Virus record (IMG/VR): IMGVR_UViG_3300002461_000841
Coordinates: 503-64,502 of that record
Strand: one strand, 5' to 3'
Length of the DNA: 64,000 nucleotides
Source: a virus
Part shown: positions 29,088-51,411 of the stretch, piece by piece
Position numbering within the stretch: the first letter of the stretch is position 1
Layout of the letters: the number at the start of each line of letters is the position of its first letter
The notes under the pieces: generated by a model
Database searches by the model: none
What the model saw: only the letters and a program-made list of their open reading frames with translations
Told to the model about the DNA's origin: nothing
Position numbers and translations under genes: made by a program

Positions 29088-29128
29088 GTCCGTCACCCTC
29101 AACCCCAGTCAAGGAAGGTACACGTCAA

Positions 29129-29707
29129 ATGGCTCAGCTCCGCGGTTCCGTCAACCTGCTCGGTCTCAACGCCTACGGGCAGAACCCGGGCATGAACCCG
29201 ATCTTCGGCACGCTCATCGGCGGCGGCACTGCGGCTGTCACGACGATCGCGCTCCGCCACACCGGCACCACGAACAACCCCGAGTTGTTCGGGCTCCTCG
29301 GCGGCCTCGCGGCGTCCGGCCTCATGTTCTCGATGAAGTCGACGCGCCACGCGGCGCTCGGCTCGGCGGTTGGCGCGTTCTTCGCGGCCGGCGTGGCCTG
29401 GCTCGAGAAGACCCTCTTCGGCGCGCAGACCGTTGCCGTGCCGGGCGTCGGTATCCCGACGATTCGCGGTCTCGGCATCCCCGCCGCGCGGCAGCTCAAC
29501 GGCGTCGGGATCCCGAACATCTCGAACGTGAGCTCGCCCGTGGGCGTTGCCGGCAACCAGCTCGCGCAGCCGGGGCACTCCTCGCCGCCCGTGAGCCTAC
29601 TCGGCACGCAGTCGCCGCAGGCGGCGCAGCTCCGCGGCATGGGCGGCCCGACGACGCACGGCCTCTCGGCGGCGTACGGCGCGACGCTCATGGGCATGGG
29701 CCGCTAA
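29129..29707 (+). CDS. Gly-rich multi-pass membrane protein
   Basis: AAGGAAGG SD; three hydrophobic segments. Confidence 0.65.
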   Translation: MAQLRGSVNLLGLNAYGQNPGMNPIFGTLIGGGTAAVTTIALRHTGTTNNPELFGLLGGLAASGLMFSMKSTRHAALGSAVGAFFAAGVAWLEKTLFGAQTVAVPGVGIPTIRGLGIPAARQLNGVGIPNISNVSSPVGVAGNQLAQPGHSSPPVSLLGTQSPQAAQLRGMGGPTTHGLSAAYGATLMGMGR

Positions 29708-29888: not shown

Positions 29889-30596
29889 ATGGCCGGCACT
29901 GTTGGTGTTGCTCCCGGAACCACGACCATCCAGATGGCGGATGGCAAGACCATCTCGATCGAGGACTGGATCGACGACAAGCTGTACTCGACGGTGCAGC
30001 TCGTGAATGCGCAGAGCTCGCCCGTCGAGGCGTTCATCGCTGGCCGCAGCCAGCCGATCTCGGGCGGCACGCGCGCGTCCACCCAGGTCGACACGAACGT
30101 TCCGCGCTCGGGCGACTCGGGTCTCATGCAGTCGTGGGAGATGTACATCTACTCCCTCTGCGTGTCCCCGGTCCGCGTGATGCGTCCGCCCACCGGCGCC
30201 GCGAACCCGACCCTGGCCGATGGCTCGGGCGCGCTCTCGAACGTCCCGACGCTGCAAACGCTGCTCTCGGTCGATCGCGTCACGTACCTCAAGTTCCGCT
30301 ACAACGAGAAGGACTACTCGTACGGCGTGATGTCCGACTACCCGGCGGGCAAGGGGTACTCGGTGTTCTCGACCAACGCGATCTTCGAGAACGCGAACAA
30401 CGGCGTCCCGTCGCCGCGCGACCGGCAGGCGCTCGTGCTGCCCATCTGGCTCCGCGAGAACCTCGCGTACAAGATGAGCTTCGCGCCCGAGGCGCCCCTG
30501 GTGATCAACCAGGCGGCGTCGGATGGCCAGACGGCACTGACCTTCATGGACGTGAAGACGTCCGCGTACGGTCTGATCCGCCGCAACGTGACCTAG
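29889..30596 (+). CDS. Putative major capsid protein, single jelly-roll-like
   Basis: Beta-rich alternation (LYSTVQL, WEMYIYSLCV, YLKFRY, LPIWL, VKTSAYG); strong AAGGAG SD; own terminator; no HK97 signature. Fold not verified. Confidence 0.55.
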   Translation: MAGTVGVAPGTTTIQMADGKTISIEDWIDDKLYSTVQLVNAQSSPVEAFIAGRSQPISGGTRASTQVDTNVPRSGDSGLMQSWEMYIYSLCVSPVRVMRPPTGAANPTLADGSGALSNVPTLQTLLSVDRVTYLKFRYNEKDYSYGVMSDYPAGKGYSVFSTNAIFENANNGVPSPRDRQALVLPIWLRENLAYKMSFAPEAPLVINQAASDGQTALTFMDVKTSAYGLIRRNVT

Positions 30597-36598: not shown

Positions 36599-37531
36599 CT
36601 AGGGCCGTTCGGGTGACCAACGCGAGGCCACCCATGCGCCCACCACGGTTGCGAGGAGGCCGGCAGCGGCGAGCGTACCGCCGGCCCCAACAACGCTACC
36701 CGGCCCGACGATCGGCCGGCCACAGATCGGAAGGTCGCCCCATGACGGGCGGCCTTGCCCGAGCTGCTCGAGGGTGAGTTGCACTTGCCGCGCCCCGATC
36801 GGTGTCTTGTCCGTCTGCCCCTTGAGCGGCGCACGCGCGAAGATGCTCCACGGGTCGACGTTGGGGAGAGCCCCGACCCAGAACTCGCCCTCACGCGCGC
36901 GGTTGATCACGTGCGCGCGAACGCCGCTCGAGAGGATCGGACGCGTGCAGCTTCCGCAGCGCTTTCCGCTGCCACCAGTGTCCGGGTAATACTCGAGCCC
37001 GACCTGATCGACGGCGCCGCGCCCGAAGTTGGCGCTGGCCCCGGACAGCACGAACTTCGCGAGCATGACGGTGAGGGCAGTGGGGTCCCTCGACGTTGCC
37101 GCCCACCGACCATATGGGGCGCTGTCGACGCCGCTCGGGGGGTGGATCGGGCCGTAGAAGCCGCGGTTGGGATGCCCCGCCTTCTGGCGATAGAGCAGGA
37201 TGCCCGTGACGCCGGCGAGGCGCCACTGCCGCGAGCGGTTCACGGCGATCTCCCCAACGAGCACACGCTCCTCGACCGTGCCAGAGCCCTGCTCGCTTTG
37301 CATGTAACGCGCGAGCGTGTACTCGTCGAGTGTGAGCCCCGGCGGGACCTCGGCGAACGATGTCAGCTTCTCGGCGCACCGCGCGCGCATCGTCTCCGGC
37401 GCGCACGGGGCATTGCCCGTGCTCGAGTTGACGGGGCATCCCACTGACAACGGGATGTTGTACTCGGCGATGCCGCGAAACTTGTCGAACTTCTCGTGCC
37501 ACCACGGTAGGCAGTCGATGGGCGTCGTCAT
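36599..37531 (-). CDS. SleB/Hydrolase_2-like cell-wall hydrolase with C-terminal anchor
   Basis: LARYMQSEQG...VGEIAVNR pattern; C-terminal TM. Confidence 0.6.
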   Translation of the reverse strand: MTTPIDCLPWWHEKFDKFRGIAEYNIPLSVGCPVNSSTGNAPCAPETMRARCAEKLTSFAEVPPGLTLDEYTLARYMQSEQGSGTVEERVLVGEIAVNRSRQWRLAGVTGILLYRQKAGHPNRGFYGPIHPPSGVDSAPYGRWAATSRDPTALTVMLAKFVLSGASANFGRGAVDQVGLEYYPDTGGSGKRCGSCTRPILSSGVRAHVINRAREGEFWVGALPNVDPWSIFARAPLKGQTDKTPIGARQVQLTLEQLGQGRPSWGDLPICGRPIVGPGSVVGAGGTLAAAGLLATVVGAWVASRWSPERP

Positions 37532-37577: not shown

Positions 37578-38060
37578 ATGGGTGACGCCAACGTCGTGAA
37601 CCTACAGCGTGCGCTCAACCGCTTTGCGGCGAGCGTTGGTTTCACCCCGATCGCCGCGGATGGCGTGGTGGGCACGCAGACCTTGATCACCACCAAGCGG
37701 GTGCTCACGTACATCGCCGTTGATCTGACCGAGACGGGTGAACCGTTCTCGCAACAGGCGAGCTACTTCGACGCGAAGACGACCACGAGCACGACGGTGC
37801 TCGCGGTGAGCTCCGCCCAGCTCGCGGCCTTCTTGAACCAGGTCGCAACGGCTTGGGCGCTGCCCGTCACGGGACCGGGCATGATCATCCCGGGTGCTGG
37901 CGGGGGTACTGTCATCGGCACCAAGCCGGGCCTCGCGACGTCGCTTGTCGGGGGCTGGTACAAGCTCGCCGCGTGGCAGAAGGTCGGCGCGGTGTTGCTC
38001 GCGATCATCGCGGCCTTGTGGGGCGCCAAGCAGTGGAAGGCCCGTAAGGGGGGCGTGTAA
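37578..38060 (+). CDS. Peptidoglycan-binding-domain protein with C-terminal anchor
   Basis: VVNLQRALN...IAADGVVGTQT; TGaTAGGGT 8 nt before ATG. Confidence 0.65.
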   Translation: MGDANVVNLQRALNRFAASVGFTPIAADGVVGTQTLITTKRVLTYIAVDLTETGEPFSQQASYFDAKTTTSTTVLAVSSAQLAAFLNQVATAWALPVTGPGMIIPGAGGGTVIGTKPGLATSLVGGWYKLAAWQKVGAVLLAIIAALWGAKQWKARKGGV

Positions 38061-38599
38061 TGGCTGAGACAGTCCGTTTTCCGATCATCCGCGCCAGCAT
38101 CGGGCCGGGCAAGACCTTGCCCTCCGAGGACGATCAGGTTCTCGTGCTCGTCAGCGCGCAGGATTCCTTTCCCCAGGGCGGCGGCAACAACTTCGTGGCG
38201 CTCGCGCCATGGAAGCAGATCGCGGCGGGCTCCGAGACGCCATACACCGATGTCGTGATCGAGTTCATGTACGCGGGCCCCGGTACGCCGAGCTCGTTCC
38301 AGATCGGCGATGGAACTGCCACGACGGCGCTCGGGCTGTTCGGCGAGATCACGGTCCCCTTCAAGGGTGCTACCGCGCCGCAGCGCTTTCTGTTGGGCCG
38401 GCTCGGCCTCAATCAGGGCACGGTCGCCCCGACGATTCCGATCATCTCTTCGACGGTCGGATTCGCGCAGGAGGTGTGCAGCGTCGCCGTGTACGACAAG
38501 CTCGCCATTGGCGGCATCAACACCGTCGTGAGCGTCACCGAGTCGTACCCGATCACGGTACGTGCACGTCCGATTCGTCGTCGGTACTACGGAGGCTAA
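38060..38599 (+). CDS. Beta-rich putative virion protein
   Basis: TAATG coupling; precedes spike genes. Confidence 0.55.
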   Translation: MAETVRFPIIRASIGPGKTLPSEDDQVLVLVSAQDSFPQGGGNNFVALAPWKQIAAGSETPYTDVVIEFMYAGPGTPSSFQIGDGTATTALGLFGEITVPFKGATAPQRFLLGRLGLNQGTVAPTIPIISSTVGFAQEVCSVAVYDKLAIGGINTVVSVTESYPITVRARPIRRRYYGG

Positions 38600-38602
38600 G
38601 CC

Positions 38603-40579
38603 ATGAGCAAGTGCAACGGCTTCGTACCCGGTGGGGGCGGCGGCGATGGTGGTGGTCCGTCCATCCAGACGATCTCCGCCGGAACGACGGTGGCGACCGG
38701 CCCGTTGGTCGCGTTCGGCAACGCCAACGGCGTGACCTTCGGCGTCAACGGCAACACGGTCACCGCGAGCATCGTCGCGGGCGGTGGTGGTTCCGGGTCC
38801 GGTGTCGGCCTATCGGCCGGCACGACCAACGCGACCGCCGGCGTGGTCGTGTTCTCGAACTCGAACTCGATCTCGTTCGGCCTCAACGGCCAGACGATGA
38901 CGGCGCAGTTCTCGTACACCCAGAGCACGGCGCCGGGTGCGATCGCCGCTGGATCGCAGACCGCAGGCTCGGGCACGGTGGTGCTCGCCAACAGCAACGG
39001 CGTCACCTTCGGGATGTCGGGCAGCTCGCAGGTGACGGCGAGTGTCTCGAGCCTCGTTTACTCGAACTCGAACAACATCACGTTCGGCCTCAACGGGTCG
39101 ACCCTGACGGCGTCGGCGTCCTACTCGAACTCGACCGCCCCCGGGGCCTTCGCCGCCGGCACTCAGACCGCAACGTCAGGCACGGTCGCGCTCGTCAACT
39201 CGAACGGTCTCACGTTCGGGATGTCCGGTAGCTCCCAGGTCACTGGCTCGTTTTCGACGCTGGTTTACTCCAACTCCAACAACGTGACGTTCGGGCTCAA
39301 TGGCTCAACGCTCACCGCTTCGGCATCACAGAGCTCGCTCAGCTTCTCGAACGCCAACGGCGTCACCTTTGGCACCAACGGCTCGACGCTCACTGCCTCG
39401 GTGGCGGCGCAGACCTCGCTCGTGTTCTCGAACTCCAACGGCCTCACCTGGGGCACTAACGGGTCGACGATCACGGGCAGTTTCAGCTCGCTCTCGTTCG
39501 CTAACGCGGGCGGGGTGAGCTTTGGGCTCAACGGCTCGACGCTCACGGCCGCAGCCCCTGCGGCGACGAGCCTCGTGTTCTCGAACTCGAACAACGTCTC
39601 GTTCGGGACCAACGGCAGCACGATCACGGCGACGGCGAGCTTCCCGGCGCAGGTCCCGTTCGGGGTGTCCGCCGGGACACAGAGCGTCAGCACCGGCACG
39701 CTGGTGTTCTCGAACTCGAACGGCGTCACGTTCGGGATGAGCGGATCGTCGCGGATCACGGCCTCGGTCGCGGCGCAGACGGCATTCGTGTTCTCGAACT
39801 CGAACAACGTCTCGTTCGGGACCAACGGCAGCACGGTGACGGCGACGGCCACGTTCTCGCAGTCGACGGCGCCCGCCGCGATCTCGGCGGCAGGGTCAAG
39901 CCGCACGTCGGGCACGATCGTGTTCTCGAACTCGAACAACGTGTCGTTCGGGATGAACGGCGGCACGATCACTGCGACGGCGAGTTTTCCGGGTGGCGGC
40001 GGTGGCGGATTCTCGGGCAGCTACTGGGCCCCTGCTGGGAACTTCCCGAACAACCTCGGGATCACTTGGAACCAGAGCCAGTTCAGCGTGCAGCGGGTGT
40101 CGGCGGGGATGTCGTTGTCCGCGACGCGCATGGATCTGCTCGTCGAATACGGCTCGACGGTGTCTGACGCCACGTTCTCGTATGGGGCCACGCTCTACAC
40201 CATCAACTCGACCGGCGGCTATGCTCAGTCGGTGAGCTCCGCGACTGTGACGGCCGCCCTCGGCGCGGCCACCGGCATCCGCTGGCGCTCGATGCCGCTC
40301 GGGACCTGGAACATCACCCCGGGCGAGTACCTGCTCGGCATCAACGGCGCGTATTCATACGCTGGTACCCAGCCACCGACCTGGATGCACTACGGTGCGC
40401 TCATCCCGCCGCAGATCGAGGGCACGGGCAACGAGCCGTTCCTCGCCAATGGCGTGTTTGCGAACACCCTCAACGTCACGCAGACGGTGAGCGCGATCTC
40501 CACGAATGCGGTGACCAACCAGTTCGCCAGCTATGCCATCGCGCAGCCCTACGTGCGCTTCGTTGGAGCGTCGGCGTAA
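38603..40579 (+). CDS. Spike/fibre protein 1 (about 13 FSNSN.V.FG repeats plus C-terminal head)
   Basis: Repeats counted by eye; head with WRSM.LGTWNITPGEY and QPYVRF. Confidence 0.75.
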   Translation: MSKCNGFVPGGGGGDGGGPSIQTISAGTTVATGPLVAFGNANGVTFGVNGNTVTASIVAGGGGSGSGVGLSAGTTNATAGVVVFSNSNSISFGLNGQTMTAQFSYTQSTAPGAIAAGSQTAGSGTVVLANSNGVTFGMSGSSQVTASVSSLVYSNSNNITFGLNGSTLTASASYSNSTAPGAFAAGTQTATSGTVALVNSNGLTFGMSGSSQVTGSFSTLVYSNSNNVTFGLNGSTLTASASQSSLSFSNANGVTFGTNGSTLTASVAAQTSLVFSNSNGLTWGTNGSTITGSFSSLSFANAGGVSFGLNGSTLTAAAPAATSLVFSNSNNVSFGTNGSTITATASFPAQVPFGVSAGTQSVSTGTLVFSNSNGVTFGMSGSSRITASVAAQTAFVFSNSNNVSFGTNGSTVTATATFSQSTAPAAISAAGSSRTSGTIVFSNSNNVSFGMNGGTITATASFPGGGGGGFSGSYWAPAGNFPNNLGITWNQSQFSVQRVSAGMSLSATRMDLLVEYGSTVSDATFSYGATLYTINSTGGYAQSVSSATVTAALGAATGIRWRSMPLGTWNITPGEYLLGINGAYSYAGTQPPTWMHYGALIPPQIEGTGNEPFLANGVFANTLNVTQTVSAISTNAVTNQFASYAIAQPYVRFVGASA

Positions 40580-40582
40580 CTC

Positions 40583-41881
40583 ATGGCGGATACGCAGCCC
40601 ATCGCGTTTGGTTCTTACCAGGCCTCGAGCATGCGCCTGGGCGGTGCGAACCCGTACCCGCAGGGGTCGATCTCGGCGGCTATCGTCGAGCTTGGCAACT
40701 CGGTCGTCTCGTCGATCACGTCGATGGGGACGGACACGAAGTACGTCGAGCTGATCTTGAACAACCGGGGCCCCAACACCGGCGGCGCCGGCAATGGGCT
40801 CACCCTCGTCGGCGGCCTTGCCGGATACCGCATCAACTTCCCAGGCACTGTGGATGCCGGGACCGCCGGCGTGCAGGGCACGCTGGGGATGATCAGCGGG
40901 GTCTCGTGGAACAGCGGATCCCCCGTGGTGTTCTCGAACGGCCTCATGTTCTTCGACAACGCCAACGGGGTGACGTTCGGCGGGTCTGTCAGCGGGCAGA
41001 GCATGACGATCACGGGCTCTGTCGTGGGCGGCGGGTACGCGCTACAAGCCGGCACCCAGAACGCCTCGAGCGGCACCGTGCGCTTCGAGAACTCGAACGG
41101 CGTCACGTTCGGAATGAGTGGCAACAGCCGGGTGACGGCGTCGGTGGCTGGCGTGTCGGCGGTGTCGGCGGGCACCAACGTGATCAGCAACGGCACCGCG
41201 GTGTTCTCGAACTCGAACGGTGTCAGCTTCGGCGTCAGCGGCTCGACGGTTACTGCGCAGCTCGTTCCGGCGCGTTACTGGGACGTGAACACGCCCATCA
41301 CGTCGATGGCGTTCCGCCCGCTGTCATTCGGCTCGGTCACCCTGCAACGCGTGCAGATCCCACGCATGTCCGCAACGCGGATGGAGCTCGCGGCCGAACT
41401 ACGCCAGGTCGGTAACGACGCCATCACGCTCGCCCTGGGGGCCGGGCTCTACGGCATCTCGGGATCGACGATCACGTTGCTCTCTACGGCCTCGGTTGGG
41501 CTCAACCTCACGCGGGTGTCGCTGTCGACCTCGAATCCGCTCATCATCGAGAACCAGACCGGGTACCGTTGGCGATCGATTCCGCTCGGGACGTGGAGCA
41601 TCACACCGGGCGAGTACATGCTCGCGTTGGCGTACAACTACACGAACAGCGGCGGCTTCGCGATCTCCTTCGATCCTTGGGGCAACGTGGTTTCGCAGGC
41701 GATCTACGCCCCCGGTGATACGACGGTCAACTACTCTGCCTACTTCGCCAACGGGATCTTGGGCAGCACGCTTGCCGATGTGACCGCCTTTCCGAGCTCG
41801 TTGCAGCTTTCGCAGATCAACCAGACCGTGGCTGAGGCGCAGAACTCGCCGTACTTGCGTCTCGTCGGTACCGGAGGTTAA
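40583..41881 (+). CDS. Spike/fibre protein 2 (about 3 repeats plus head)
   Basis: MADTQP start; WRSIPLGTWSITPGEY; SPYLRL. Confidence 0.7.
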   Translation: MADTQPIAFGSYQASSMRLGGANPYPQGSISAAIVELGNSVVSSITSMGTDTKYVELILNNRGPNTGGAGNGLTLVGGLAGYRINFPGTVDAGTAGVQGTLGMISGVSWNSGSPVVFSNGLMFFDNANGVTFGGSVSGQSMTITGSVVGGGYALQAGTQNASSGTVRFENSNGVTFGMSGNSRVTASVAGVSAVSAGTNVISNGTAVFSNSNGVSFGVSGSTVTAQLVPARYWDVNTPITSMAFRPLSFGSVTLQRVQIPRMSATRMELAAELRQVGNDAITLALGAGLYGISGSTITLLSTASVGLNLTRVSLSTSNPLIIENQTGYRWRSIPLGTWSITPGEYMLALAYNYTNSGGFAISFDPWGNVVSQAIYAPGDTTVNYSAYFANGILGSTLADVTAFPSSLQLSQINQTVAEAQNSPYLRLVGTGG

Positions 41882-41883
41882 CC

Positions 41884-43245
41884 GTGGACACGCAGCCGAT
41901 TGTCCGGGGCTCGTATGGATCCTCCAACGCGCGCCTAGGAGGCGCGAACCCATACCCGCAGGGGTCGGTGATCGATGCGATCGTCGAGCTTGGCAACTCG
42001 GTCGTCTCGTCGATCACGTCGATGGGGACGGATACGAAGTACGTCGAGCTGCGGCTCAACAATCGTGGGCCCAACACCGGCGGCGCCGGCAACGGCTTGA
42101 CGCTGGTGGGCGGGCTCGCCGGCTACCGCATCAACTTCCCGGGCACCGCTGACGCTGGTACGGCGGGGGTTCAGGGCACGCTGGGGATGATCAGCGGGGT
42201 CTCGTGGAACAGCGGATCCCCCGTGGTGTTCTCGAACGGCCTCATGATGCTGTCGAACGGCAACGGCATCACGTTCGGCGGCTCGATCGATGGCAACTCG
42301 TTGTCCCTGACGGGGTCTTCAGCCGGCGTCAAGGCGCTCGCTGCTGGCACCCAGACCGCAACCTCTGGCACCGTCGTGTTCTCGAACTCGAACGGCGTCA
42401 CGTTCGGGATGTCGGGCAGCTCTCAGGTCACCGCCAACTGGGGTGGAGTCAAGAGCGTCGCCGCTGGCGGCTCGACGATCCCGGCGACCGTTGTGCTTGG
42501 TAGCGCCGACGTCAACTTCGGGATCGCTGGGGTGACGGTCACGGCTGCGCCATTTCGTGTGTCCATGTCGGCCAACAGTGACTCCCCAATCCACCCGGAA
42601 GGCCGGGCGGCGATCACGCAGCAACCTGGGGTTGGTGGATCCTCGTCGTACTACGCCAGCTTTCAGCGCCTATCGTTCGCTAATGCGCTCTCGGCGACGC
42701 GCTTCGATATCGTGGCCCGGATGTTCGGGACGGCTAGCACCGCGAGCTCGATCCAGACACGCTACCCGGGCGGGTCGATCACGATCGTGGCAGCGATCTA
42801 CACGATCAACAACTCGACGATCGGGTCTGTCAGTTCAGCGTCAACGCAGATCAGTTGGGAGCGGCAGTTCACTGACGAGTTCGTCGGTACTGAGTGGTAC
42901 CGGGGGCAAAGTGGGTGGCGATGGCGTTCGATGTCGCTTGCGGATGGCGGTTGGAACGTCACCCCCGGTGAGTACATGGTGCGCATGCACATGTCGATGG
43001 GGGCCCTGCAGTCCGCCGACGACTTCATCTATTTCGAGGTCCCGGCGGCGTACTACAACGGTGGGCCCGGGGTCCCGATCCTGCCTCCGGGGGTATCGAC
43101 CATACAGACGTTGCCGTACTTCGCGAACGGCGTGTACTCGGCGACGGTCAACGTCAACCCGACGACGCTGGGCACGGTACATGTCTCCGAGATCCAATCG
43201 AATAGCGTCGCGCAGCCGTACTTTAGGCTGATCGGTAGCGCTTAG
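41884..43245 (+). CDS. Spike/fibre protein 3 (2-3 repeats plus head)
   Basis: N-terminal ~120 aa nearly identical to spike 2; WNVTPGEY; QPYFRL. Confidence 0.7.
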   Translation: MDTQPIVRGSYGSSNARLGGANPYPQGSVIDAIVELGNSVVSSITSMGTDTKYVELRLNNRGPNTGGAGNGLTLVGGLAGYRINFPGTADAGTAGVQGTLGMISGVSWNSGSPVVFSNGLMMLSNGNGITFGGSIDGNSLSLTGSSAGVKALAAGTQTATSGTVVFSNSNGVTFGMSGSSQVTANWGGVKSVAAGGSTIPATVVLGSADVNFGIAGVTVTAAPFRVSMSANSDSPIHPEGRAAITQQPGVGGSSSYYASFQRLSFANALSATRFDIVARMFGTASTASSIQTRYPGGSITIVAAIYTINNSTIGSVSSASTQISWERQFTDEFVGTEWYRGQSGWRWRSMSLADGGWNVTPGEYMVRMHMSMGALQSADDFIYFEVPAAYYNGGPGVPILPPGVSTIQTLPYFANGVYSATVNVNPTTLGTVHVSEIQSNSVAQPYFRLIGSA

Positions 43246-43261
43246 ATTAGAGTAGGGGTCG

Positions 43262-46200
43262 ATGGCCGACACTCAGCCTCAAGTAACGGGCAGCTACGCG
43301 TCCGTTCAAGACGGCACGTCAACGCTCGGGATCCAGCGGCTCGTGGTCGGGCGTTCGGACGACGCGGGCGGGCACACGATTCAGTTCGGCCAGAGCACGA
43401 ATCCGCTCGAGTTGCACGCCCCGACGGGGCCGTACACGTTGACGTTGCCGCAGGGCAACGGGCGCCTGGGCCTTGTCTCGGCGATCGTCGTCAGCGATCA
43501 GACCTTCACCAACGGACAGGTTGCCTTCGGGGTCAGCAACGGCCTCACGTGGGGCATCTCCACTGACGGCAGCTCGGCCACCATCACCGGATCGATCCCG
43601 CTCTACTCGAGCGTCAGTTTCGCCAACGCGAACAATGTGACGTTCGGGCTCGCGGGCTCGACGCTCACTGCTAGCGCCAGCTACAGCCAGTCGACGGGGC
43701 CGGGGGCCATCAGCGCGGATGGGGGCGCGATCACGAGCGGCACCGTGTTGTTCTCGAACTCCAACGGGGTCTCGTTCGGGGTAGCCGGCCAGACGGTCAC
43801 CGCCAGCGTGGCGGCGCAATCGGTGGCCCCGGGGGCACTCGCCGCCGGCACGCAGACGGCCACCAGTGGCACCGTCGTGTTCTCGAACTCGAACGGCGTC
43901 ACGTTCGGGATGTCGGGGAGCTCGCAGATCACCGCCAGCTATAGCCAGAGCACGGCCCCGTCAGCGGTTGGGGCCGGGGTATCTAACATCACAAGCGGTT
44001 CGGTCTACTTCTCGAACTCGAACAACGTCACCTTCGGCGCCAACGGGCAGCGCATCACTGCCTCGGCCAGCTTCGCCCAATCGACCGCCCCCGGCGCGAT
44101 CGCGGCTGGAACCCAGACCGCCACGAGCGGAACCGTCGTGTTCTCGAACTCGAACAACATCACGTTCGGGATGTCGGGGTCGTCGCGCATCACTGCGAGC
44201 GCGAGCTTTCCCGCGGAAACCCCGTTCGGGGTGTCGGCTGGTACCCAGAGCGTCTCGACGGGAACGCTCGTGTTCTCGAACTCGAACGGCGTCACGTTCG
44301 GGATGTCGGGCAGCTCCCAGGTCACTGCGAGTGTGAGCTCGGTGGTGTTCTCGAACTCGAACAACATCACGTTCGGCCTCAACGCGTCGACGCTAACGGC
44401 ATCGGCAAGTTACAGCCAGAGCACGGCTCCCGGCGCGTTCGCTGCCGGCACGCAGACGGCCACGAGCGGTACGATCGTCCTCGCGAACTCGAACGGGCTC
44501 ACGTTCGGGATGAGCGGATCGTCGCAGATCACGGGCAGCTACAGCCAGTCGACGGCGCCCAGCGCGATCGGTGTGGCGGCCTCGACGGCCTCGAGCGGCA
44601 CGGTCGTCTTCGGTGACGCGAACAACCTGACGTTCGGCATGGTGGGCAACACCGTCACCGCGTCGGCGAGCTTCCCTGCACAGAGCACCGCCCCCGCGGC
44701 CATCTCCGCCGCTGGTAGCTCGGTCTCGAGCGGCACCGTCGTCTGGTCCAACAGCAACAACGTCTCGTTCGGAATGAACGGGAACACGATCACGGCAACG
44801 GCCACGTTCGCGGGGGGCGGTATCGCTGCCGCAGCCGGCACCCAAACCGCCACGAGCGGGACCGTTGTCCTTGCGAACAGCAACGGCTTGACGTTCGGGA
44901 TGTCGGGCAGCTCCCAGGTCACGGGTTCGTTTTCTACCGTCGTGTTCTCGAACTCGAACAACGTCACGCTCGGCTACAACGCCGGCACGCTGACTGCGTC
45001 GGCGAGCTTTCCCGCGGAAACCCCGTTCGGGGTCTCGGCAGGCACGCAGAGTGTCAGCACGGGAACGCTCGTGTTCTCGAACTCGAACGGCGTCACGTTC
45101 GGGATGTCTGGTTCAAGCCGCGTTACCGCGAGCGTCAGCTCGGCGACCTTCTCGAACTCGAACAACGTCACGTTCGGCGTCAACGCGGGGACGGTGACCG
45201 CCAGCGCCAGTTTCAGCCAGAGCACGGCGCCGAGCGCGATCTCGGCGGCTGGCGCCTCGGCCTCGAGCGGCACGGTGGTGTTCTCGAACTCGAACAACGT
45301 CTCGTTCGGGATGAACGGGAACACGATCACCGCGACGGTCACCACGCCGAGCCAGGTCCCGTTCGGGGTGTCTGCCGGGACGCAATCGGTCTCGACGGGG
45401 ACCCTCGTGTTCTCGAACAGCAACGGGGTCACGTTCGGGATGAGCGGATCGAGCCGCGTGACGGCGTCGGTCTCGAGCGTCGTGTTCTCGAACTCGAACA
45501 ACATCACGTTCGGGCTCAATGCGGGCACCCTCACCGCAACGGCCACGTTCTCGCAATCGACGGCCCCCGCGGCGATCAGCGCTGCCGGCAGTTCGGTCTC
45601 AAGCGGCACCGTGGTGTGGAGCAACGCCAACAACGTCTCGTTCGGCATGAACGGCAATACGATCACCGCCACGGCGACCTTCGCCGGGGGCGGGGGCGTC
45701 GCCGCCGCCGCTGGGACGCAGACGGCAACGTCGGGAACGGTCGCCTTCGCGGACAGTAACGGCCTGTCGTTCGGCATGTCGAACAGCTCGCAGATCACCG
45801 CGAGCTTCGAGGCCATCAAATCGGTTGTCGCCGGTACACAGACCGCGGTCGGACCCCAACTCAGCTTCAACAATAGTTGGGGCGTGCTGTTCGGGATGGT
45901 GAACAGCGCCAGCATCACGGCGCGGCTGCAGTTCGACAACGCGTTCGCGGCTGGCGGCAACGTCCAGTTCGGGGTGACCAACAGCTCGATTTGGGGCTCG
46001 GCGCCGGCGCCGATCACGCTCTCGGCGGGGACCAACGTCATCGCGGTAGGCACTGCCGTGTTCTCGAACTCCAACGGGGTCAGCTTCGGCATCAACGGCA
46101 ACACGATCACCGCAAGCGTCGCGCCTGGCGGTGGTGGCGGCGTCGCGGTGTCCGCCGCCGGCAGCTCGGCATCGACTAACACCATCGTGTGGTCGAACTT

Positions 46201-47317
46201 CAACAATGTCTCGTTCGGGATGAACGGGGACACGATCACCGCCACGGCCACGTTCGCGCAGTCGACAAACCTTGCCGCGCTCGCCGCGGCTGGCGGCACG
46301 ATCACGACCGGGACCGCGAGCTTCTCAAACGCCAACGGCGTGAGCTTCGGCGTGAACGGCCAGACCGTCACCGCCTCGGTGGCGGCACAGACGGCGTTCC
46401 AGTTGTCGAACAGCAACGGGATCTCGTTCGGCACGAACGTCTCTACCGTCACCGCGACCTTCGCGGGGATCAAGAGCGTCTCGGGCGGCACCACCCAGGT
46501 CACCAACGGCGAGCTCGTGCTCTCCAACGCCAACGGAGTGACCTTCGGCGTCAACGGCAACACCGTCACCGCCTCGGTCGCCGCCGGCGGTGGCGGTGGG
46601 GTTGCAATCTCCGCCGGCACCCAGACCGCGACGTCGGGCACGGTCGTGTTCTCGAACTCCAACGGCGTCTCCTTCGGTCTGAACGGCCAGACCGTCACCG
46701 CCGCCGTTGGCAAGGTCGCGAACATCAGCTACTTCACGGCACACAACTTCCTCAGCGCATCGGGCGCGGCCGTGGTCACCACCTCCGGCAATCTCAGCCT
46801 GCAGCGCATCGTCGTGAACGCACCGCTACCGGCCACGCGCCTCGAGATATTTGCCAGCCACACGGTGAACGGCAGCCAGGCCGGCTCATACACGATGCGC
46901 GCCGCGCTCTACTCCATGGCGGGCACGTACATCACGCAGCTGTCCAGCAACTCGCAGTCGTACACCTTCGGTACGGGGTCGACCAACTCGTTCTCGGTGT
47001 ACGGCGGCCACTCTGGCATCCGCTCGCGCAGCATGTCCGTGAGTTGGTCGATCGAGCCGGGCGAGTACATGCTCGCCCTGATGATCTCGAACTCCAACCC
47101 GGCTGGCACGACGGGCTCGTGGACTGTGTATGGCAAGTCGGTGCTCGCGCAGTTGGCGCCTATCGGCACGAATGGAACGAGTAACCAGGTCTGGAAGGAC
47201 TGCGTCTATACGGCGTCGGCTTCGAGCTTCATGGACAGCATCCAACTGGTCCAGGTGCAACAGTCCGTCACTGGTGCCCTGCGCCAGCCCTACGTCGAGC
47301 TGGCCGGCACGTTCTAA
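43262..47317 (+). CDS. Spike/fibre protein 4 (about 28 repeats plus head)
   Basis: MADTQP start; long S/T/G/A/N repeat shaft; WSIEPGEY; QPYVEL. Confidence 0.8.
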   Translation: MADTQPQVTGSYASVQDGTSTLGIQRLVVGRSDDAGGHTIQFGQSTNPLELHAPTGPYTLTLPQGNGRLGLVSAIVVSDQTFTNGQVAFGVSNGLTWGISTDGSSATITGSIPLYSSVSFANANNVTFGLAGSTLTASASYSQSTGPGAISADGGAITSGTVLFSNSNGVSFGVAGQTVTASVAAQSVAPGALAAGTQTATSGTVVFSNSNGVTFGMSGSSQITASYSQSTAPSAVGAGVSNITSGSVYFSNSNNVTFGANGQRITASASFAQSTAPGAIAAGTQTATSGTVVFSNSNNITFGMSGSSRITASASFPAETPFGVSAGTQSVSTGTLVFSNSNGVTFGMSGSSQVTASVSSVVFSNSNNITFGLNASTLTASASYSQSTAPGAFAAGTQTATSGTIVLANSNGLTFGMSGSSQITGSYSQSTAPSAIGVAASTASSGTVVFGDANNLTFGMVGNTVTASASFPAQSTAPAAISAAGSSVSSGTVVWSNSNNVSFGMNGNTITATATFAGGGIAAAAGTQTATSGTVVLANSNGLTFGMSGSSQVTGSFSTVVFSNSNNVTLGYNAGTLTASASFPAETPFGVSAGTQSVSTGTLVFSNSNGVTFGMSGSSRVTASVSSATFSNSNNVTFGVNAGTVTASASFSQSTAPSAISAAGASASSGTVVFSNSNNVSFGMNGNTITATVTTPSQVPFGVSAGTQSVSTGTLVFSNSNGVTFGMSGSSRVTASVSSVVFSNSNNITFGLNAGTLTATATFSQSTAPAAISAAGSSVSSGTVVWSNANNVSFGMNGNTITATATFAGGGGVAAAAGTQTATSGTVAFADSNGLSFGMSNSSQITASFEAIKSVVAGTQTAVGPQLSFNNSWGVLFGMVNSASITARLQFDNAFAAGGNVQFGVTNSSIWGSAPAPITLSAGTNVIAVGTAVFSNSNGVSFGINGNTITASVAPGGGGGVAVSAAGSSASTNTIVWSNFNNVSFGMNGDTITATATFAQSTNLAALAAAGGTITTGTASFSNANGVSFGVNGQTVTASVAAQTAFQLSNSNGISFGTNVSTVTATFAGIKSVSGGTTQVTNGELVLSNANGVTFGVNGNTVTASVAAGGGGGVAISAGTQTATSGTVVFSNSNGVSFGLNGQTVTAAVGKVANISYFTAHNFLSASGAAVVTTSGNLSLQRIVVNAPLPATRLEIFASHTVNGSQAGSYTMRAALYSMAGTYITQLSSNSQSYTFGTGSTNSFSVYGGHSGIRSRSMSVSWSIEPGEYMLALMISNSNPAGTTGSWTVYGKSVLAQLAPIGTNGTSNQVWKDCVYTASASSFMDSIQLVQVQQSVTGALRQPYVELAGTF

Positions 47318-47895
47318 GGCTTCACGGCTTGGAGCTTGGCCTCCCAGTCGCTGATCTGGTTGATCTGGTGGGTCATCTTGAGCCGTGCCGCGTCGGGGTG
47401 CAGGAGCGTCAGATCCTGGCTGACCATCGGGTTCGCGCCGCCGATGAAGTTGCACCGCACGTTGTAGTGATCGAGCATGTTGCCCTTGCGGAACTCGGGG
47501 TTCAGGTACGCGAACGTCTCGGCGACGATGTAGCGCGTGTGGGTCGGGTCCTGAAAGCCGCGGTTCGAGAACGCGTTGGGGACGACGATCGTCATCCAGG
47601 CCCCGGGGGCCATGATGCGCCAGCACTCGTCGAAGAACGCGAAGAACGGGTTCTGCCCGTTGACGAGTGGGTACTGCGGGATGTGCTCGATGTAGTGGGA
47701 GCAGTAGAGCTCGGCGACGCTCGAGTCCGGGATCGGGGCGCCATCGACCTGCCACGGGAACTGGTTCAGGTCCCACACGTGCTGGGCCTTCTCGTAGATG
47801 TCGATGCCCTCGAAACCCTCGCGCGGGCGTTGGCCGCAGGCGAGATCGAAGCGGCGAGTAGCGGTGGGCTGAGCGATGATCGGGGGCGTCGTCAT
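47314..47895 (-). CDS. Class I SAM-dependent methyltransferase (type 11-like)
   Basis: DLACG motif I; SHYIEH; ECWRIM.PG; DPTH. Confidence 0.75.
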   Translation of the reverse strand: MTTPPIIAQPTATRRFDLACGQRPREGFEGIDIYEKAQHVWDLNQFPWQVDGAPIPDSSVAELYCSHYIEHIPQYPLVNGQNPFFAFFDECWRIMAPGAWMTIVVPNAFSNRGFQDPTHTRYIVAETFAYLNPEFRKGNMLDHYNVRCNFIGGANPMVSQDLTLLHPDAARLKMTHQINQISDWEAKLQAVKP

Positions 47896-48950
47896 GGGAG
47901 CTGCAAAACCTTTCTGATGTGGGAGCCAACAGCGGTGTAGGAGAAACGTTCCGGGAAGTCGTAGAAGAGGGATTGAGCGGGCCGTGCCGTCGTCGCGCGC
48001 TGCATCGCCAGCGCGAGCTTGGCGTGGTTAACGGTGATCCAAGCGTCGCGGCACGACAGGCCCTGTGGGCGGTGCCCGTCGCAGATGACAAGATCCGGCC
48101 GGCTCTCGACGAGTTGCGCCGACGCGGAGCTCAAGAAGAAGTCGCTGCCGAGGCCCATCGGGGCGATCACGTGTTTGCCCGCGAGCACGGCCTCGAACGC
48201 GGCCAAGCCCCAGGCTTCGCCGTGGCTCGCGGTCACGAAGCAGTCGTGATTGCGCAACGTCGCGTTGCGCCGATCGGGCGGGAAGTCATCGTGTACGACG
48301 CGCAGGGCCGGCAAGTCTGAGGCCCCGATCGCAGCGATCTTGGTCGCATCGTCGAGCTCCTGGCTGTACGCGCCACGCAGGTAGAGCGTGAGCTCGACGG
48401 GGTCTGCGGTCTTGAACGCGGCCGTGTACGCGCACAAGAGCCCGCGCAGATTCTTCCGCGGGGAGCTGTCGCCGCGGTAGTAGAACCGATAGAGGGGGCT
48501 CGGCGTGGCCGGTTGCTGGTGATCGCGGTCTGCATTGTACGCGTGCGGGATCCAGTCCGTGAATGGCTTCGGGCTGGGGGTCGGGCTCCACACATGATCG
48601 AACTTGGCGAGCGCGGCAAGGAGCGCTGGGTCCGTGGGGGTGGCGACGCCCTCCCACGTCGTGTAGACCGCCGTCTCGACGCCATCGAAGCGCGAACTAT
48701 CCATGCGCAGGGATTCCAGCTCGCGCGCGGCGGCGAGTGGCTGCAGATGGATGAGCAGGAGATCCGGCGTGCGCGTCCAGCGATTGAAGTGCGGCGCAAG
48801 CGGGGCTGCGTCGCCTTCCCAGCCTGCCATCGCGCCGTGGCGCCCGATGTCCAGTTCGATGCCGGCGGCGAGGATCGATCGGCACAACCCGGTGCCTGCC
48901 TCGCCGTAGCCTGAGCGCCCGCCAACGTGGCCGTAGTAGCGGATCAGCAC
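47892..48950 (-). CDS. GT-B fold (family 4-like) glycosyltransferase
   Basis: SGYG, RKNLRGLL, DCFVTASHGEAWGLAAFEA; start moved to GTG 48950. Confidence 0.75.
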   Translation of the reverse strand: MLIRYYGHVGGRSGYGEAGTGLCRSILAAGIELDIGRHGAMAGWEGDAAPLAPHFNRWTRTPDLLLIHLQPLAAARELESLRMDSSRFDGVETAVYTTWEGVATPTDPALLAALAKFDHVWSPTPSPKPFTDWIPHAYNADRDHQQPATPSPLYRFYYRGDSSPRKNLRGLLCAYTAAFKTADPVELTLYLRGAYSQELDDATKIAAIGASDLPALRVVHDDFPPDRRNATLRNHDCFVTASHGEAWGLAAFEAVLAGKHVIAPMGLGSDFFLSSASAQLVESRPDLVICDGHRPQGLSCRDAWITVNHAKLALAMQRATTARPAQSLFYDFPERFSYTAVGSHIRKVLQLP

Positions 48951-48954
48951 ACGA

Positions 48955-49773
48955 TCACCACATCTGCTTGCCGGTGGGGTCCGCGAGATCGATGTGCCCG
49001 ACGCGAACGCGCGTGTCGACGGCGAACCGCTTGCCTTTGCGCTTGGCCTTCTCGCAGAAGTAGAGATCCTGCGTGAACCCGACCGGGCCCTTCTCGGGGA
49101 TGATGTCCGAGAGAGTCTGGAACCACGGGCCCTCGATGTCGCGGAACAGGTCCATGCGGTACAGCGAGCAGCCCATCGCGATCCCATTGACCTCGACGAT
49201 GTTGCCGTTCGCGAGCGCGCTGCGGATGTCGCGCGGCCGGAACTCGAGCTCGCCCGTGCGCCGGAAGTGTTCGGGGTCGCCGTACGCCATCGGCATGTTG
49301 AAGTCGCCCTTGGTGAAGTAGAGCCCACCGACGGCATCGAAGCTGCCCGCCTCGATCGCTTCGAGCAGCCGCACGTGGGCGTCGGGCGGCACGAGGTTGT
49401 CGCTCTCGAGCGTCAACACGTACTTCCATTTCGAGAGGTTCGGGTCGGCCAGGATGTTCTTGATCATCTGGTCGTACGCCACCCCGACCTCGTGCCCGAT
49501 GACGTAGAACTTGGCGCGCTTGCCGTTCATCGGCGCGATGAGGCTGTCCCAGGCCTGAACGATGCGCCAATGGAACTTGTGGTCGCGCTCGGGGATGATG
49601 ATGATCGTCGAGTTGTCCTTGTAGGTGGAGCCGGGGATCATCTCGACGCGCTCGAAGCCAAGCATGCGATCGCGCTCCATCGCGGTTTCGATCGCAACCT
49701 TGCCGGTTGCATCGGCGACGGCGCTCGCCGCCGGCAGCGTCACGGACTTCGGGGTAACGTCTTCGTTGGCCAT
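48955..49773 (-). CDS. GT-A fold (family 2-like) glycosyltransferase
   Basis: YVLTLESDN; QDLYFC...VDTRVRVGH; same family as 17929..18630. Confidence 0.7.
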   Translation of the reverse strand: MANEDVTPKSVTLPAASAVADATGKVAIETAMERDRMLGFERVEMIPGSTYKDNSTIIIIPERDHKFHWRIVQAWDSLIAPMNGKRAKFYVIGHEVGVAYDQMIKNILADPNLSKWKYVLTLESDNLVPPDAHVRLLEAIEAGSFDAVGGLYFTKGDFNMPMAYGDPEHFRRTGELEFRPRDIRSALANGNIVEVNGIAMGCSLYRMDLFRDIEGPWFQTLSDIIPEKGPVGFTQDLYFCEKAKRKGKRFAVDTRVRVGHIDLADPTGKQMW

Positions 49774-50182: not shown

Positions 50183-50626
50183 ATGAAGCCCCTCAAGTCG
50201 ATCGCCAAGTTCGCCCTCGTCCTCTGCCTGCTCCTCGGTCTGCCCATGTGCGGACCGCCGACGTACGTCGACCCCGTGACCCACGAAGAGATCGCGTGCT
50301 CCGAGCTGCCCGCCGTCACCCTCGAGACGACCATCGCGGAGCTCGCCCAGGTCTACAGCACGAAGGGCTTGCCAGGCGTCTACACGTACGCGCTCGGCAA
50401 GGGCGTCGCTTACGGCGGCTGCGCGCTCGCGTACTTCCTGAATGACCTCCTCACCGTCACCCCCGGCGAGCAACCGCTTTCCGATGCGGAGGCCGTCGCG
50501 GCGCGCAAGACACTCGAGGACGCACGCGCCGAGTTCTTGCGACTCGAACAAGACAAAGCGCTCAAAGCCACGCAGAGCCCGCCGCGTCGGATCATCTGGA
50601 TCGATGCCGAGGGCCACGCGCTGTGA
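50183..50626 (+). CDS. Exported/lipoprotein-like protein
   Basis: Signal-like N-terminus ending ...LGLPMC. Confidence 0.5.
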   Translation: MKPLKSIAKFALVLCLLLGLPMCGPPTYVDPVTHEEIACSELPAVTLETTIAELAQVYSTKGLPGVYTYALGKGVAYGGCALAYFLNDLLTVTPGEQPLSDAEAVAARKTLEDARAEFLRLEQDKALKATQSPPRRIIWIDAEGHAL

Positions 50627-51411
50627 TCTTCGAGGCGCCGCTCGTTGGGCCGCTCGGGGTCTCGCATAGCAAGACGGACTCGCGCACGATCAAGCTCGCC
50701 CAGGTCGCTGTGCGCCGGCCCCTGCGGGCCCCGCCATCGAAAGCGATCTGGGGCGTCCTGCCCACGGGCGGTGTCGTCAAGCGTGGCGAGGCGTACGGCA
50801 ACACCGAGATCGGCAACTGCGTGTTCGCCGAGTGGGGCGGCGTCGACGAGACCGTGTGCGCGCACACCGGAGCGCCGCGCAAGGTCACGCGTGATGTCGC
50901 GATCCAAGGATACTCCGACTACACGAACTACGATCGCGCTACCGGCAAGGGCGACGACGGCTCTTCGATGTACGATGGGATCAAGTGGGCCAAGGCGATC
51001 GGGCTCATCGATGCGTTCGCGCAGATCGAGACGGGCGACGCCGTGCAGTGCAAGGCCGAGATCGAGCTCGCCGTACACTTGACCATGAGCGCCCAGCTCT
51101 CCGTCGCGATGCCGATCGCGTGGCAGTCGCGCAAGGTCTGGGACTCGGCGCCAGCGCAGGGCCGCGATCGGACCTGGGAGTACGGCTCGTGGGGCGGTCA
51201 CGCGATCTCGGTGATCGACTATGACCAGCGCGGGCTCTGGGTCTTCACGTGGGGCGGCGTGAAGTTCATGACGTGGGAAGGCTACCTCTCGTACCGCAAG
51301 AGCGACGCTTACGTCGGCTTCCATCACGCGCTCGCGCGCATGCCCGATGGAAGCCCCACGCCGTGTGGCCTCTACGCATCCGAGATCAAGCGCATCCTCG
51401 CGGGCCTCTGA
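50623..51411 (+). CDS. Papain-like cysteine peptidase (possible endolysin)
   Basis: GNCVFA (Cys), GGHAI (His), FTWG; next to holin-like gene. Confidence 0.6.
   Translation: MIFEAPLVGPLGVSHSKTDSRTIKLAQVAVRRPLRAPPSKAIWGVLPTGGVVKRGEAYGNTEIGNCVFAEWGGVDETVCAHTGAPRKVTRDVAIQGYSDYTNYDRATGKGDDGSSMYDGIKWAKAIGLIDAFAQIETGDAVQCKAEIELAVHLTMSAQLSVAMPIAWQSRKVWDSAPAQGRDRTWEYGSWGGHAISVIDYDQRGLWVFTWGGVKFMTWEGYLSYRKSDAYVGFHHALARMPDGSPTPCGLYASEIKRILAGL

Follow-up and report, generated by a model that had tools for sequence, protein, structure and literature searches.

Four paralogous genes built on an FSNSNG repeat, a putative array of receptor-binding fibres in an uncultivated virus

Four neighbouring genes of an uncultivated virus encode proteins that combine one shaft repeat, FSNSNG, with related C-terminal heads. 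We propose, with a probability of about 0.7, that these paralogs are arranged like an operon and encode homotrimeric receptor-binding fibres of the virion that differ in reach and specificity. This proposal builds on gene structure, repeats, head homology, head fold class and family spread, all of which were observed. Receptor-binding fibres decide which hosts can be infected, and their shafts represent a small set of known trimeric folds; here, the kind of protein, a fibre, is familiar and the repeat family is new. The window (the whole stretch of 64,000 nucleotides that was analysed) belongs to a high-GC dsDNA genome with activated-carbon, biofilter and drinking-water metagenomes as sources. 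The context in the window is viral, with genes for a SNF2 helicase, a primase, a Sak4-like annealing protein, an SSB and an exonuclease, and the neighbouring Atlas clusters are 87–97% viral. The sequencing runs listed in a search for the sequence included no RNA run.

Gene array and shaft repeat

According to the listing of open reading frames, the array comprises four tightly spaced plus-strand genes of 658, 432, 453 and 1351 aa, with intergenic gaps of 3, 2 and 16 nt in the order of genes 1–4. A further gene precedes them directly. The features are:

38060..38599, + strand: upstream gene, 179 aa, directly 5' of gene 1 and sharing its frame
38603..40579, + strand: gene 1, 658 aa, with a short Gly-rich N-terminus, shaft and head
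38675-40012, + strand: gene 1 shaft (aa ~25-470), 13 units
40013-40576, + strand: gene 1 head (aa 471-658)
40583..41881, + strand: gene 2, 432 aa, with anchor, shaft and head
40583-40927, + strand: gene 2 anchor domain, N-terminal, 115 aa
40928-41266, + strand: gene 2 shaft, 3 units
41267-41878, + strand: gene 2 head
41884..43245, + strand: gene 3, 453 aa, GTG start with GGAGG upstream
41884-42225, + strand: gene 3 anchor domain, protein 87–100% identical to the gene 2 anchor
42226-42615, + strand: gene 3 shaft, 2–3 units
42616-43242, + strand: gene 3 head, divergent
43262..47317, + strand: gene 4, 1351 aa, with anchor, shaft and head
43262-43516, + strand: gene 4 anchor domain, 85 aa
43517-46726, + strand: gene 4 shaft, 26–28 units
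46727-47314, + strand: gene 4 head

The 179-aa gene gave no match in the family libraries searched; its product may be a fibre-associated or vertex protein. A read-through fusion of this frame to gene 1 was rejected: the stop codon is TAA, and gene 1 starts from an ATG of its own, with GGAGG 8 nt ahead of it. Long antisense open reading frames (e.g. 44974-46725, minus strand) were rejected as frame shadows of the high-GC repeat. At the other end of the array, the stop codon of gene 4 overlaps that of a convergent methyltransferase gene.

All four proteins contain the unit motif FSNSN(G/N)V(T/S)FG. The first-pass annotation had described a single unit in short and long forms with about 13, 3, 2–3 and 28 copies, and our pattern counts bear this out: a strict 10-residue pattern finds 13, 3, 2 and 26 units in genes 1–4, and degenerate extra copies raise gene 3 to 3 units and gene 4 to about 28. 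The units are spaced by ~25 aa in the short form or by 40–45 aa (~43) in the long form, which dominates across the family and has the Ser/Thr/Gly/Asn-rich consensus SAGT...G..VFSNSNGVTFG..G...TAS. The resulting shafts are ~445, 110, 130 and 1070 residues long, an about ten-fold range; they consist of 29–30% Ser+Thr and almost lack charged residues. At the DNA level, a 55-nt core occurs in 33 copies with 60–82% identity. The translations also confirm the common start M(A)DTQP...GSY of genes 2–4.

Searches of the four proteins against Pfam, NCBIfam and PHROGs gave nothing credible, and sub-threshold matches to Milton and SLFN were rejected as composition noise. PDB sequence searches with the single proteins and the repeat profile returned nothing below E 0.46, tblastn found no match to gene 1 or to one short homologue in 50,697 GenBank phage records, and a full-text literature search with repeat motif strings turned up only an unrelated nematode paper. 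As judged from these sequence comparisons, the FSNSNG repeat is new at the family level, with no Pfam, NCBIfam, PHROG or PDB relative. The earlier suggestion that the repeat may be a new beta-spiral family thus holds for the novelty of the family. The shaft may be a beta-spiral, a triple beta-helix or another fold, but its period does not fit the first of these: triple beta-spirals have a repeat of 15–20 residues, with a fixed hydrophobic pattern and a beta-turn Gly/Pro, and FSNSNG units are spaced by 40–45 (~43) or ~25 aa.

The repeat is common in metagenomes, where it occurs in 2,337 protein clusters with proteins of up to 3,125 aa. Because it has no library model, no sequence relative among solved structures and no GenBank phage match, a repeat profile would newly annotate thousands of hypothetical proteins as fibres. 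Related viral contigs carry 1, 3 or 7 such paralogs with heads from several well-separated clades. One fibre from a related locus, L007 (1,348 aa from its ATG in a 1,351-codon frame), was considered as an orthologue of gene 4 and rejected, as it is 37–39% identical and its repeats are shifted. Chromosomes of Patescibacteria encode membrane-anchored proteins with one repeat unit and a head-like domain, and the repeat-head module is therefore not exclusively viral.

Predicted trimer, head fold and proposed function

To model the shaft and head, we predicted the complex of three copies of gene 2 aa 130-432 with its own alignment. The homotrimer scored 0.83 and the best of three controls 0.00; the same mark was reached by 20/30 proteins with a solved homodimer and by 1/23 proteins with a solved single chain, counts that hold only roughly here because an own alignment and three copies were used. 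At least 86% of contacts recur between runs, the pLDDT of the partners is at least 77, and 87 of the 99 shaft residues lie at the predicted interface. As a monomer, the gene 2 shaft folds poorly (pLDDT 55.6, pTM 0.27). By prediction only, as read from the contact list of the model, the shaft chains are intertwined in a homotrimer: the Ala in SAG contacts both the conserved Phe and the Gly/Val at the FG motif of neighbouring chains. As these proteins have no sequence relative among PDB chains, the prediction is unlikely to have been copied from a known complex. Some family members carry other N-termini, Collagen (30.3 bits, cut-off 27.2) or Mtd_N (52 bits, cut-off 26.3), both of which come from trimeric phage fibres.

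A related head closing all four proteins had been noted before, and an alignment of the four C-termini supports it. The heads (~190 aa) are homologous and 24–40% identical (30–40% in the alignment of the C-termini), with the invariant motifs QR, ATR, R.RS, W...PGEY and PY, and an HMM built for the head hits 79 of 122 homologues, in each case at the C-terminus. The head is a jelly-roll of the lectin/CBM-like type that resembles distal domains of phage tail proteins; its structure matches have moderate Z scores (about 10) at 10–14% identity and show the fold class, not the function. A beta-sandwich jelly roll thus stands at the distal end, as in phage receptor-binding proteins. Matches to TNF-like knobs in Foldseek were weak (E 4e-3 to 2e-2, TM 0.16–0.27). 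We found no support for conserved head motifs as marks of the predicted trimer interface: conserved residues are not enriched there (6/23 vs a background of 22%, p=0.5).

We suggest the following division of labour, in which attachment to the virion, receptor binding and specialization are putative roles. The N-terminal part would fix each fibre to the particle, with MADTQP..GSY as the candidate anchor in genes 2–4. Gene 1 lacks this common anchor domain, which counts against our explanation. In the shaft, three chains would wrap round each other such that nearly every residue contacts another chain. The divergent heads would bind different surface structures, most likely glycans; that the targets probably differ follows from the identity of only 24–40% between heads. 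Assuming a rise per residue of 0.6–0.9 Å, the range known from trimeric beta fibres, the graded shafts would hold the heads from ~5–10 nm up to 60–90 nm away from the particle. Long shafts may serve long-range capture and short shafts close-range binding, much as fibres of different length do in other viruses. The multi-length receptor-binding array that had been postulated from the letters of the sequence is thus supported by the predicted homotrimer, the tail-protein-like head fold and the paralog arrays in related viral contigs. With 2 to 28 copies of one unit, the four genes are a natural series for relating shaft length to adsorption.

Virion type, neighbouring enzymes and recombination

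The same fibres, working in the same way, could sit as tail fibres on the baseplate of a tailed phage instead of forming spikes at the vertices of an icosahedral virus without a tail. The head fold matches siphophage tail-tip and minor-tail proteins, other family members carry the tail-fibre N-terminus Mtd_N, and the Atlas clusters are labelled Uroviricota. We nevertheless regard a tail-mounted position as unlikely: among the ~64 open reading frames of the window, Pfam and PHROGs revealed no portal, large terminase, HK97 capsid, tail tube, tape-measure or baseplate family, and the sole packaging or structural match is a weak HTH-type 'small terminase'. Candidate capsid proteins are encoded at 28967-29707 and 29889-30596.

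Downstream of the array, three genes on the opposite strand encode enzymes of glycan synthesis and modification:

47314..47895, - strand: class I SAM methyltransferase, conserved as the third gene in the trio of fibre, GT2 and methyltransferase
47892..48950 (start provisional), - strand: GT4-family (GT-B) glycosyltransferase, PF20706, 29.6 bits, cut-off 26
48955..49773, - strand: GT2-like (GT-A) glycosyltransferase, with homologues in related loci

The GT2-like protein is 57–68% identical to the gene product that follows the fibre genes in 5/5 related viral loci and 35–62% identical to its counterparts in 43 genome loci. The order fibre, GT2, methyltransferase is found in 5/5 viral loci and in 40–43 of 58 genome loci, many of them from Patescibacteria; for the genomic setting of the trio in Patescibacteria, one locus (L062) was examined. 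In the present window, the GT4 gene sits between the methyltransferase and GT2 genes. This conserved order suggests a dedicated glycosylation of the fibres. The linkage of glycosyltransferase and methyltransferase in viruses and CPR bacteria is a lead to fibre glycosylation in prokaryotic viruses. A bolder reading, which we offer as a doubtful but conceivable one, is that FSNSNG is a new intertwined trimeric beta-fibre fold within a fibre/GT2-like/SAM methyltransferase module that builds methylated glycans on the Ser/Thr-rich fibre, and that one and the same module provides the virion fibre of a large lineage of uncultivated viruses and a surface fibre, anchored in the membrane, of Patescibacteria (CPR) cells. 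If true, the shared module would suggest that these viruses and ultra-small bacteria have exchanged attachment structures.

The neighbouring enzymes could also mean that the four genes encode a glycosylated surface coat or fibrils, made with the adjacent enzymes, that shield or stabilise the particle and are not attachment proteins. Apart from the conserved gene order, the GT4 enzyme in the window and sugar 4,6-dehydratase/epimerases in three relatives would fit such a coat, as would the Ser+Thr-rich shafts with scarcely any charge. There is a precedent in chloroviruses, where virus-encoded sets of glycosyltransferases and methyltransferases decorate virion proteins (PMC9614988). However, divergent lectin-like heads on graded shafts are a hallmark of receptor-binding fibres, and glycosylation and receptor binding can coexist. 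Furthermore, N-X-S/T sequons are not enriched in genes 1–4 (18, 7, 3 and 22 vs shuffle means of 15.8, 6.5, 5.6 and 31.0), and the action of the enzymes on the fibres is putative. We thus consider a pure coat function quite improbable.

Returning to the array of receptor-binding fibres, the first-pass annotation had further proposed that it can change length or swap heads by recombination. Genes 2 and 3 share two identical tracts in their anchor-coding 5' ends, the longer of which had been reported correctly:

40874..40948 = 42172-42246, + strand: 75-bp identical tract
40682-40734 = 41980-42032, + strand: 53-bp identical tract

Both tracts are probable gene-conversion patches, to go by their sequence. 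Between genes 2 and 3, wobble-position identity of the anchor falls to 0.5–0.6 (~0.45 by chance), and together with the 87–100% identical protein this points to strong purifying selection on a shared docking surface.

Substrates and old traces of recombination are thus present, whereas four public runs revealed neither a length nor a head variant, a weak test as contigs from short reads break inside the repeats. In one co-occurring strain, the gene 4 head differs by ~8%; this divergence is not specific to the spike because the flank at 50.3–51.0 kb diverges too. Taken further, the array could be a fast-switching cassette in which repeats cross over unequally and paralogs exchange their heads, creating length and specificity variants within populations. 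In addition to the tracts above, exact matches of 30–51 bp link repeats of different genes (e.g. 42366 = 43867, 44258 = 45059), relatives vary widely in paralog number and shaft length, and the heads of one genome belong to different clades. Yet repeat cores average only 60% DNA identity with a wobble-position identity of 0.65, so that the duplications appear old, and Tandem Repeats Finder detects one weak array only. Drinking-water and biofilter runs of 2024 yield contig pieces of 0.5–5 kb that match, without any difference, a sequence present in 2015 activated-carbon runs, and this recurrence also argues against fast switching. Apparent joints in the four runs have sides of 20–50 nt inside repeats and are untrustworthy, and neither an invertase nor a reverse transcriptase nor a template repeat was found within the window. 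A fast-switching cassette is therefore very unlikely. Nor does the array resemble an Mtd-type diversity-generating system: the scanned open reading frames of the window include no reverse transcriptase, there is no near-identical TR/VR pair, and the head is a jelly roll and not a C-type-lectin variable domain, with Mtd_N found only in other family members.

Comparison with known fibre systems

Adenovirus fibres and the vertex spike P5 of PRD1 are homotrimers with an N-terminal capsid anchor, a repeated beta shaft and a C-terminal jelly-roll knob. In adenovirus-type fibres, the number of repeats, each a triple beta-spiral element of 15–20 aa, sets the length of the shaft, and human adenovirus 40/41 and fowl aviadenoviruses have two fibre genes of different length. 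The array shares with these systems the anchor-shaft-knob plan and, in a single genome, paralogs of unequal length with different knobs. It differs in the ~43-aa (or 25-aa) unit, in its motif, in the absence of a sequence relation and in having four paralogs.

The predicted contacts, which link almost all shaft residues to another chain, are similar to those in gp5, gp12 and gp34 of T4, which form triple-stranded beta-helices with chains interdigitated about a common axis and small or hydrophobic core residues (PMC4576200, PMC5537660), although repeat periods and motifs differ. In the gp5/gp12 type, each rung of the three-faced helix takes one strand from every chain. An S74 intramolecular chaperone had no Pfam match in the four proteins, each of which ends with the head. 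One homologue is annotated by JGI as a trimeric autotransporter adhesin. For the four proteins, this class was rejected as Pfam detected in them neither a YadA domain nor a C-terminal YadA anchor family; Atlas structure rows for YadA proteins have a TM of 0.18–0.24.

The head can be likened to a carbohydrate-binding-type outer domain in the tail tip of the mycobacteriophage Bxb1 (PDB 9d93 chain Pa, residues 200-407), and baseplate accessory proteins with CBM-like folds bind cell-wall glycans (PMC13252515). The domains of siphophage tail-tip and minor tail proteins are, however, only 10–14% identical to the head, lack the FSNSNG shaft and are tail-mounted, and the matching Bxb1 domain is internal whereas the head is C-terminal.

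Several receptor-binding proteins with a common anchor are also known from phage CBA120 (tailspikes 1–4). Like these tailspikes and the MAT (mosaic adhesive trimer) fibres of Bdellovibrio (PMC10769870), the array joins a conserved N-terminal handle to shafts and tips that vary, with genes that lie in tandem or form a repertoire. The families differ, as MAT fibres are owned by the cell and the tailspikes are enzymes with single-chain beta-helices, and the Bd1399 chain is a weak match to the head in Foldseek (E 1.6e-2, TM 0.21). The logic would be the same in all three: a wider range of surface targets.

Four probable fibre genes and their shaft repeat

The four paralogous genes noticed in the first-pass annotation, their repeat units and their related heads were confirmed. 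They lie in tandem behind a small gene:

38060-38599, +, 179-aa gene, directly upstream of gene 1 and in frame with it
38603-47317, +, first of four fibre genes: gene 1, 658 codons
38603-47317, +, second of four: gene 2, 432 codons
38603-47317, +, third of four: gene 3, 453 codons
38603-47317, +, last of four: gene 4, 1351 codons

The gaps within the array measure 3, 2 and 16 nt, GGAGG is found 8 nt upstream of the start codon in genes 1 and 3, and gene 4 and a convergent methyltransferase gene overlap at their stop codons. Between the 179-aa gene and gene 1 lie only a TAA stop and one codon, and the 179-aa product had no match in the family libraries searched. In the related viral contig L005, a small domain of different sequence lies upstream of the fibres, once on its own (8624-9013) and once joined to the first fibre (9023-10624); it and the 179-aa protein may be vertex or adaptor proteins. 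Antisense ORFs of up to 583 aa with an 'FEFENT' periodicity also occur within 38.6-47.3 kb (e.g. 44974-46725, -). Their high GC3 arises because their wobble positions are shared with the repeat frame; we rejected them as genes and regard them as shadows of this high-GC frame, which an automatic gene caller could mis-annotate.

A pattern search for the strict core F-S-N-S-N-(G/N)-(V/I)-(T/S)-F-G found 13, 3, 2 and 26 units in genes 1, 2, 3 and 4, and the copy numbers proposed earlier (13, 3, 2-3 and about 28) are reached once degenerate copies are included. Spacing between units is about 25 aa in the short form and 40-45 aa in the long form, which predominates over 260 family members. Their consensus comprises about ten variable residues, SAGT, a turn that closes on G, VFSNSNGVTFG, another turn containing G, and TAS. 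A 55-nt DNA core is present in 33 copies of 60-82% identity, Tandem Repeats Finder detected one weak array only, and wobble-position identity at identical residues of the units averages 0.65 versus 0.45 expected from composition. Judged from these sequences, the units are old at the DNA level. Ser and Thr make up 29-30% of the shafts and charged residues are nearly absent. The suggestion of a new beta-spiral family holds in that the repeat is undescribed in the libraries searched, but its 43/25-aa period is unlike the 15-20 aa of the classical beta-spiral; the shaft may fold as a beta-spiral, a triple beta-helix or something new.

Genes 2-4 start with M(A)DTQP..GSY. The 115-aa N-terminal domain common to genes 2 and 3 has 87-100% protein identity with a wobble-position identity of only 0.5-0.6 across much of its length, which indicates strong purifying selection after an old duplication. 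Gene 4 carries a shorter version, whose relationship to the 'SNFQD' N-termini of fibres from related viruses is detectable. Gene 1, like several paralogs in relatives, has a short Gly-rich N-terminus followed at once by repeats.

Trimer model and heads

The segment aa 130-432 of gene 2, comprising three repeats and the head, was modelled as a three-copy assembly from a 32-row alignment. The homotrimer scored 0.83 compared to 0.00 for the best of three controls; the score mark is reached by 20 of 30 solved one-chain-pair proteins and 1 of 23 solved single-chain proteins, a calibration that is only rough here since the trimer used its own alignment and three copies. Contact agreement between runs was at least 86% and partner pLDDT at least 77. 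As no PDB chain is similar in sequence to the four fibre proteins, it is unlikely that the predictor merely reproduced a known complex. Of the 99 shaft residues in the model, 87 contact another chain. The Ala of the SAG motif touches the conserved Phe of neighbouring chains as well as their Gly/Val at the FG motif, and strands pair between chains around VFS and TVTA. The same shaft folds poorly as a lone chain (pLDDT 55.6, pTM 0.27). Some family members begin with collagen triple-helix repeats or with Mtd_N, which lends the trimer independent support.

That all four proteins end in a related head is borne out by the alignment of their last ~190 residues, with the invariant motifs QR, ATR, R.RS, W...PGEY and PY and 24-40% identity. 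An HMM of this region matched 79 of 122 homologues, in each case at the C-terminal end. The head model (30-sequence alignment; pLDDT 71.8, pTM 0.70) is all-beta. Among solved chains it best matches jelly rolls of the lectin, CBM and PHR types, and TNF-family knobs only weakly. Against predicted viral structures there were 71 matches at E<=1e-3, mostly parts of actinophage minor tail proteins and fibres with collagen repeats; such outer domains of mycobacteriophage baseplates reportedly bind glycans of the cell wall (PMC13252515). In the head tree, the three heads of L005 fall into three different well-supported clades and those of contig L001 are spread over at least three, so that multi-head sets are a habit of the lineage, drawn from anciently diverged head types. 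The window's heads have long branches, with those of genes 1-3 in a loose group and that of gene 4 placed elsewhere.

The best reading is that genes 1-4 would encode four homotrimeric receptor-binding fibres whose lengths are graded and whose lectin-like heads are divergent. The trimer model, the lectin-like head fold and the arrays in relatives favour the proposed multi-length receptor-binding array. Window genes include an SNF2 helicase, a primase-like protein, a Sak4-like annealing protein, SSBs, an exonuclease and an intein-bearing enzyme. Genes for a portal, a large terminase, an HK97 capsid or a tail could not be recognised, and the fibres may be either vertex spikes or tail fibres. The record comprises 69,887 bp with no terminal repeat.

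Relatives and recombination

The four proteins had no match in Pfam, PHROGs or NCBIfam, tblastn against 50,697 GenBank phage records gave none, and the motif did not turn up in the literature that could be searched. Among 1.84 billion representatives, a three-unit profile matched 2,337 clusters, of which 1,814 reached E<=1e-10 and 1,014 E<=1e-30; the proteins measure up to 3,125 aa and their N-termini are of many kinds. A C-terminal region of ~160-350 aa is present in most of the 138 newly listed representatives, and Atlas neighbour clusters are 87-97% viral. Five IMG/VR contigs contain relatives:

L001, seven tandem fibre paralogs, one truncated
L001 7215-7589, 124-aa ORF, fibre anchor domain and a single repeat unit, then a stop
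L001 3432-4109 and 2590-3423, SGNH/GDSL-like protein and a homologue of a 310-aa protein encoded in the window, both upstream of the fibre genes
L002 and L004, one short fibre each
L003, a single 1,213-aa fibre with 19 units
L005, three fibre paralogs

The window's 310-aa protein (36599-37531, -) is 38% identical to its L001 homologue, which has a C-terminal hydrophobic tail, as does the SGNH/GDSL-like protein. The 124-aa ORF looks like a truncated fibre paralog or a leftover of within-array recombination.

Recombination that changes fibre length or swaps heads, as put forward in the first-pass annotation, has substrates. Genes 2 and 3 are identical in two patches (75 and 53 bp) of the N-terminal domain that look like gene conversion, exact matches of 30-51 bp link units of different genes or positions, and relatives vary in paralog number and shaft length. 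However, neither length nor head variants could be demonstrated from the metagenome contigs, which break within the repeats; the sides of the reported joints are very short, and the sequence was stable across nine years. Recombination in the array is thus plausible as an evolutionary mechanism rather than established as a population-level switch. The stretch is present in activated-carbon metagenomes (2015) and in drinking-water and biofilter metagenomes (2024), the latter including identical contig pieces of 0.5-5 kb. Two 2024 runs contain, beside identical pieces, a second strain diverged by ~8% in the gene 4 head (46564-47316) and ~17% in the flank (50257-50990); related strains therefore coexist in the sampled water systems.

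Neighbouring glycosyltransferase and methyltransferase genes

The fibre array is followed by an inverted enzyme block (47314-49773, -) with an extra GT4 gene:

47314-47895, -, methyltransferase, directly downstream of the array
within 47314-49773, -, GT4 glycosyltransferase (PF20706), between the methyltransferase and GT2-like genes
48955-49773, -, GT2-like glycosyltransferase, downstream of the array

All five related viral contigs preserve the order fibre, GT2-like glycosyltransferase, SAM methyltransferase; their enzymes are 57-68% (GT2) and 37-50% (methyltransferase) identical to those of the window, and three of the contigs also have a sugar 4,6-dehydratase/epimerase. Scanning species-representative genomes with the repeat pattern as sole criterion gave 58 loci, of which 34 lie in MAGs that carry Patescibacteria group labels. 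On the same strand, the repeat protein is followed by a GT2 homologue in 43 of the 58 loci (35-62% identity) and by a methyltransferase homologue in 40 (29-44%), all 40 having both enzymes; conserved-order loci range from 35 to 67% GC. A hydrophobic N-terminal anchor is present in 15 of 33 Patescibacteria loci, giving membrane-anchored CPR proteins of ~500-600 aa (L062 7290-8957, L050 7209-8813 and 13 others). The two examined, L062 and L050, have a different extracellular domain, then one FSNSNG unit and a head-like C-terminus, and are again followed by GT2 and methyltransferase genes. The L062 trio adjoins prfB and ftsEX and its context looks cellular, so the module seems to have a cell-owned version too.

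The use of the module by both viruses and Patescibacteria, together with the conserved glycosylation trio, is most worth following. N-linked sequons are not enriched in the four fibre proteins. Putative dedicated glycosylation of the fibres by the neighbouring enzymes is a serious possibility given the Ser- and Thr-rich, nearly uncharged shafts and the precedent of chloroviruses, in which virus-encoded sets of glycosyltransferases and methyltransferases decorate virion proteins (PMC9614988). The fibre design is familiar; its shaft repeat is undescribed and very widespread.
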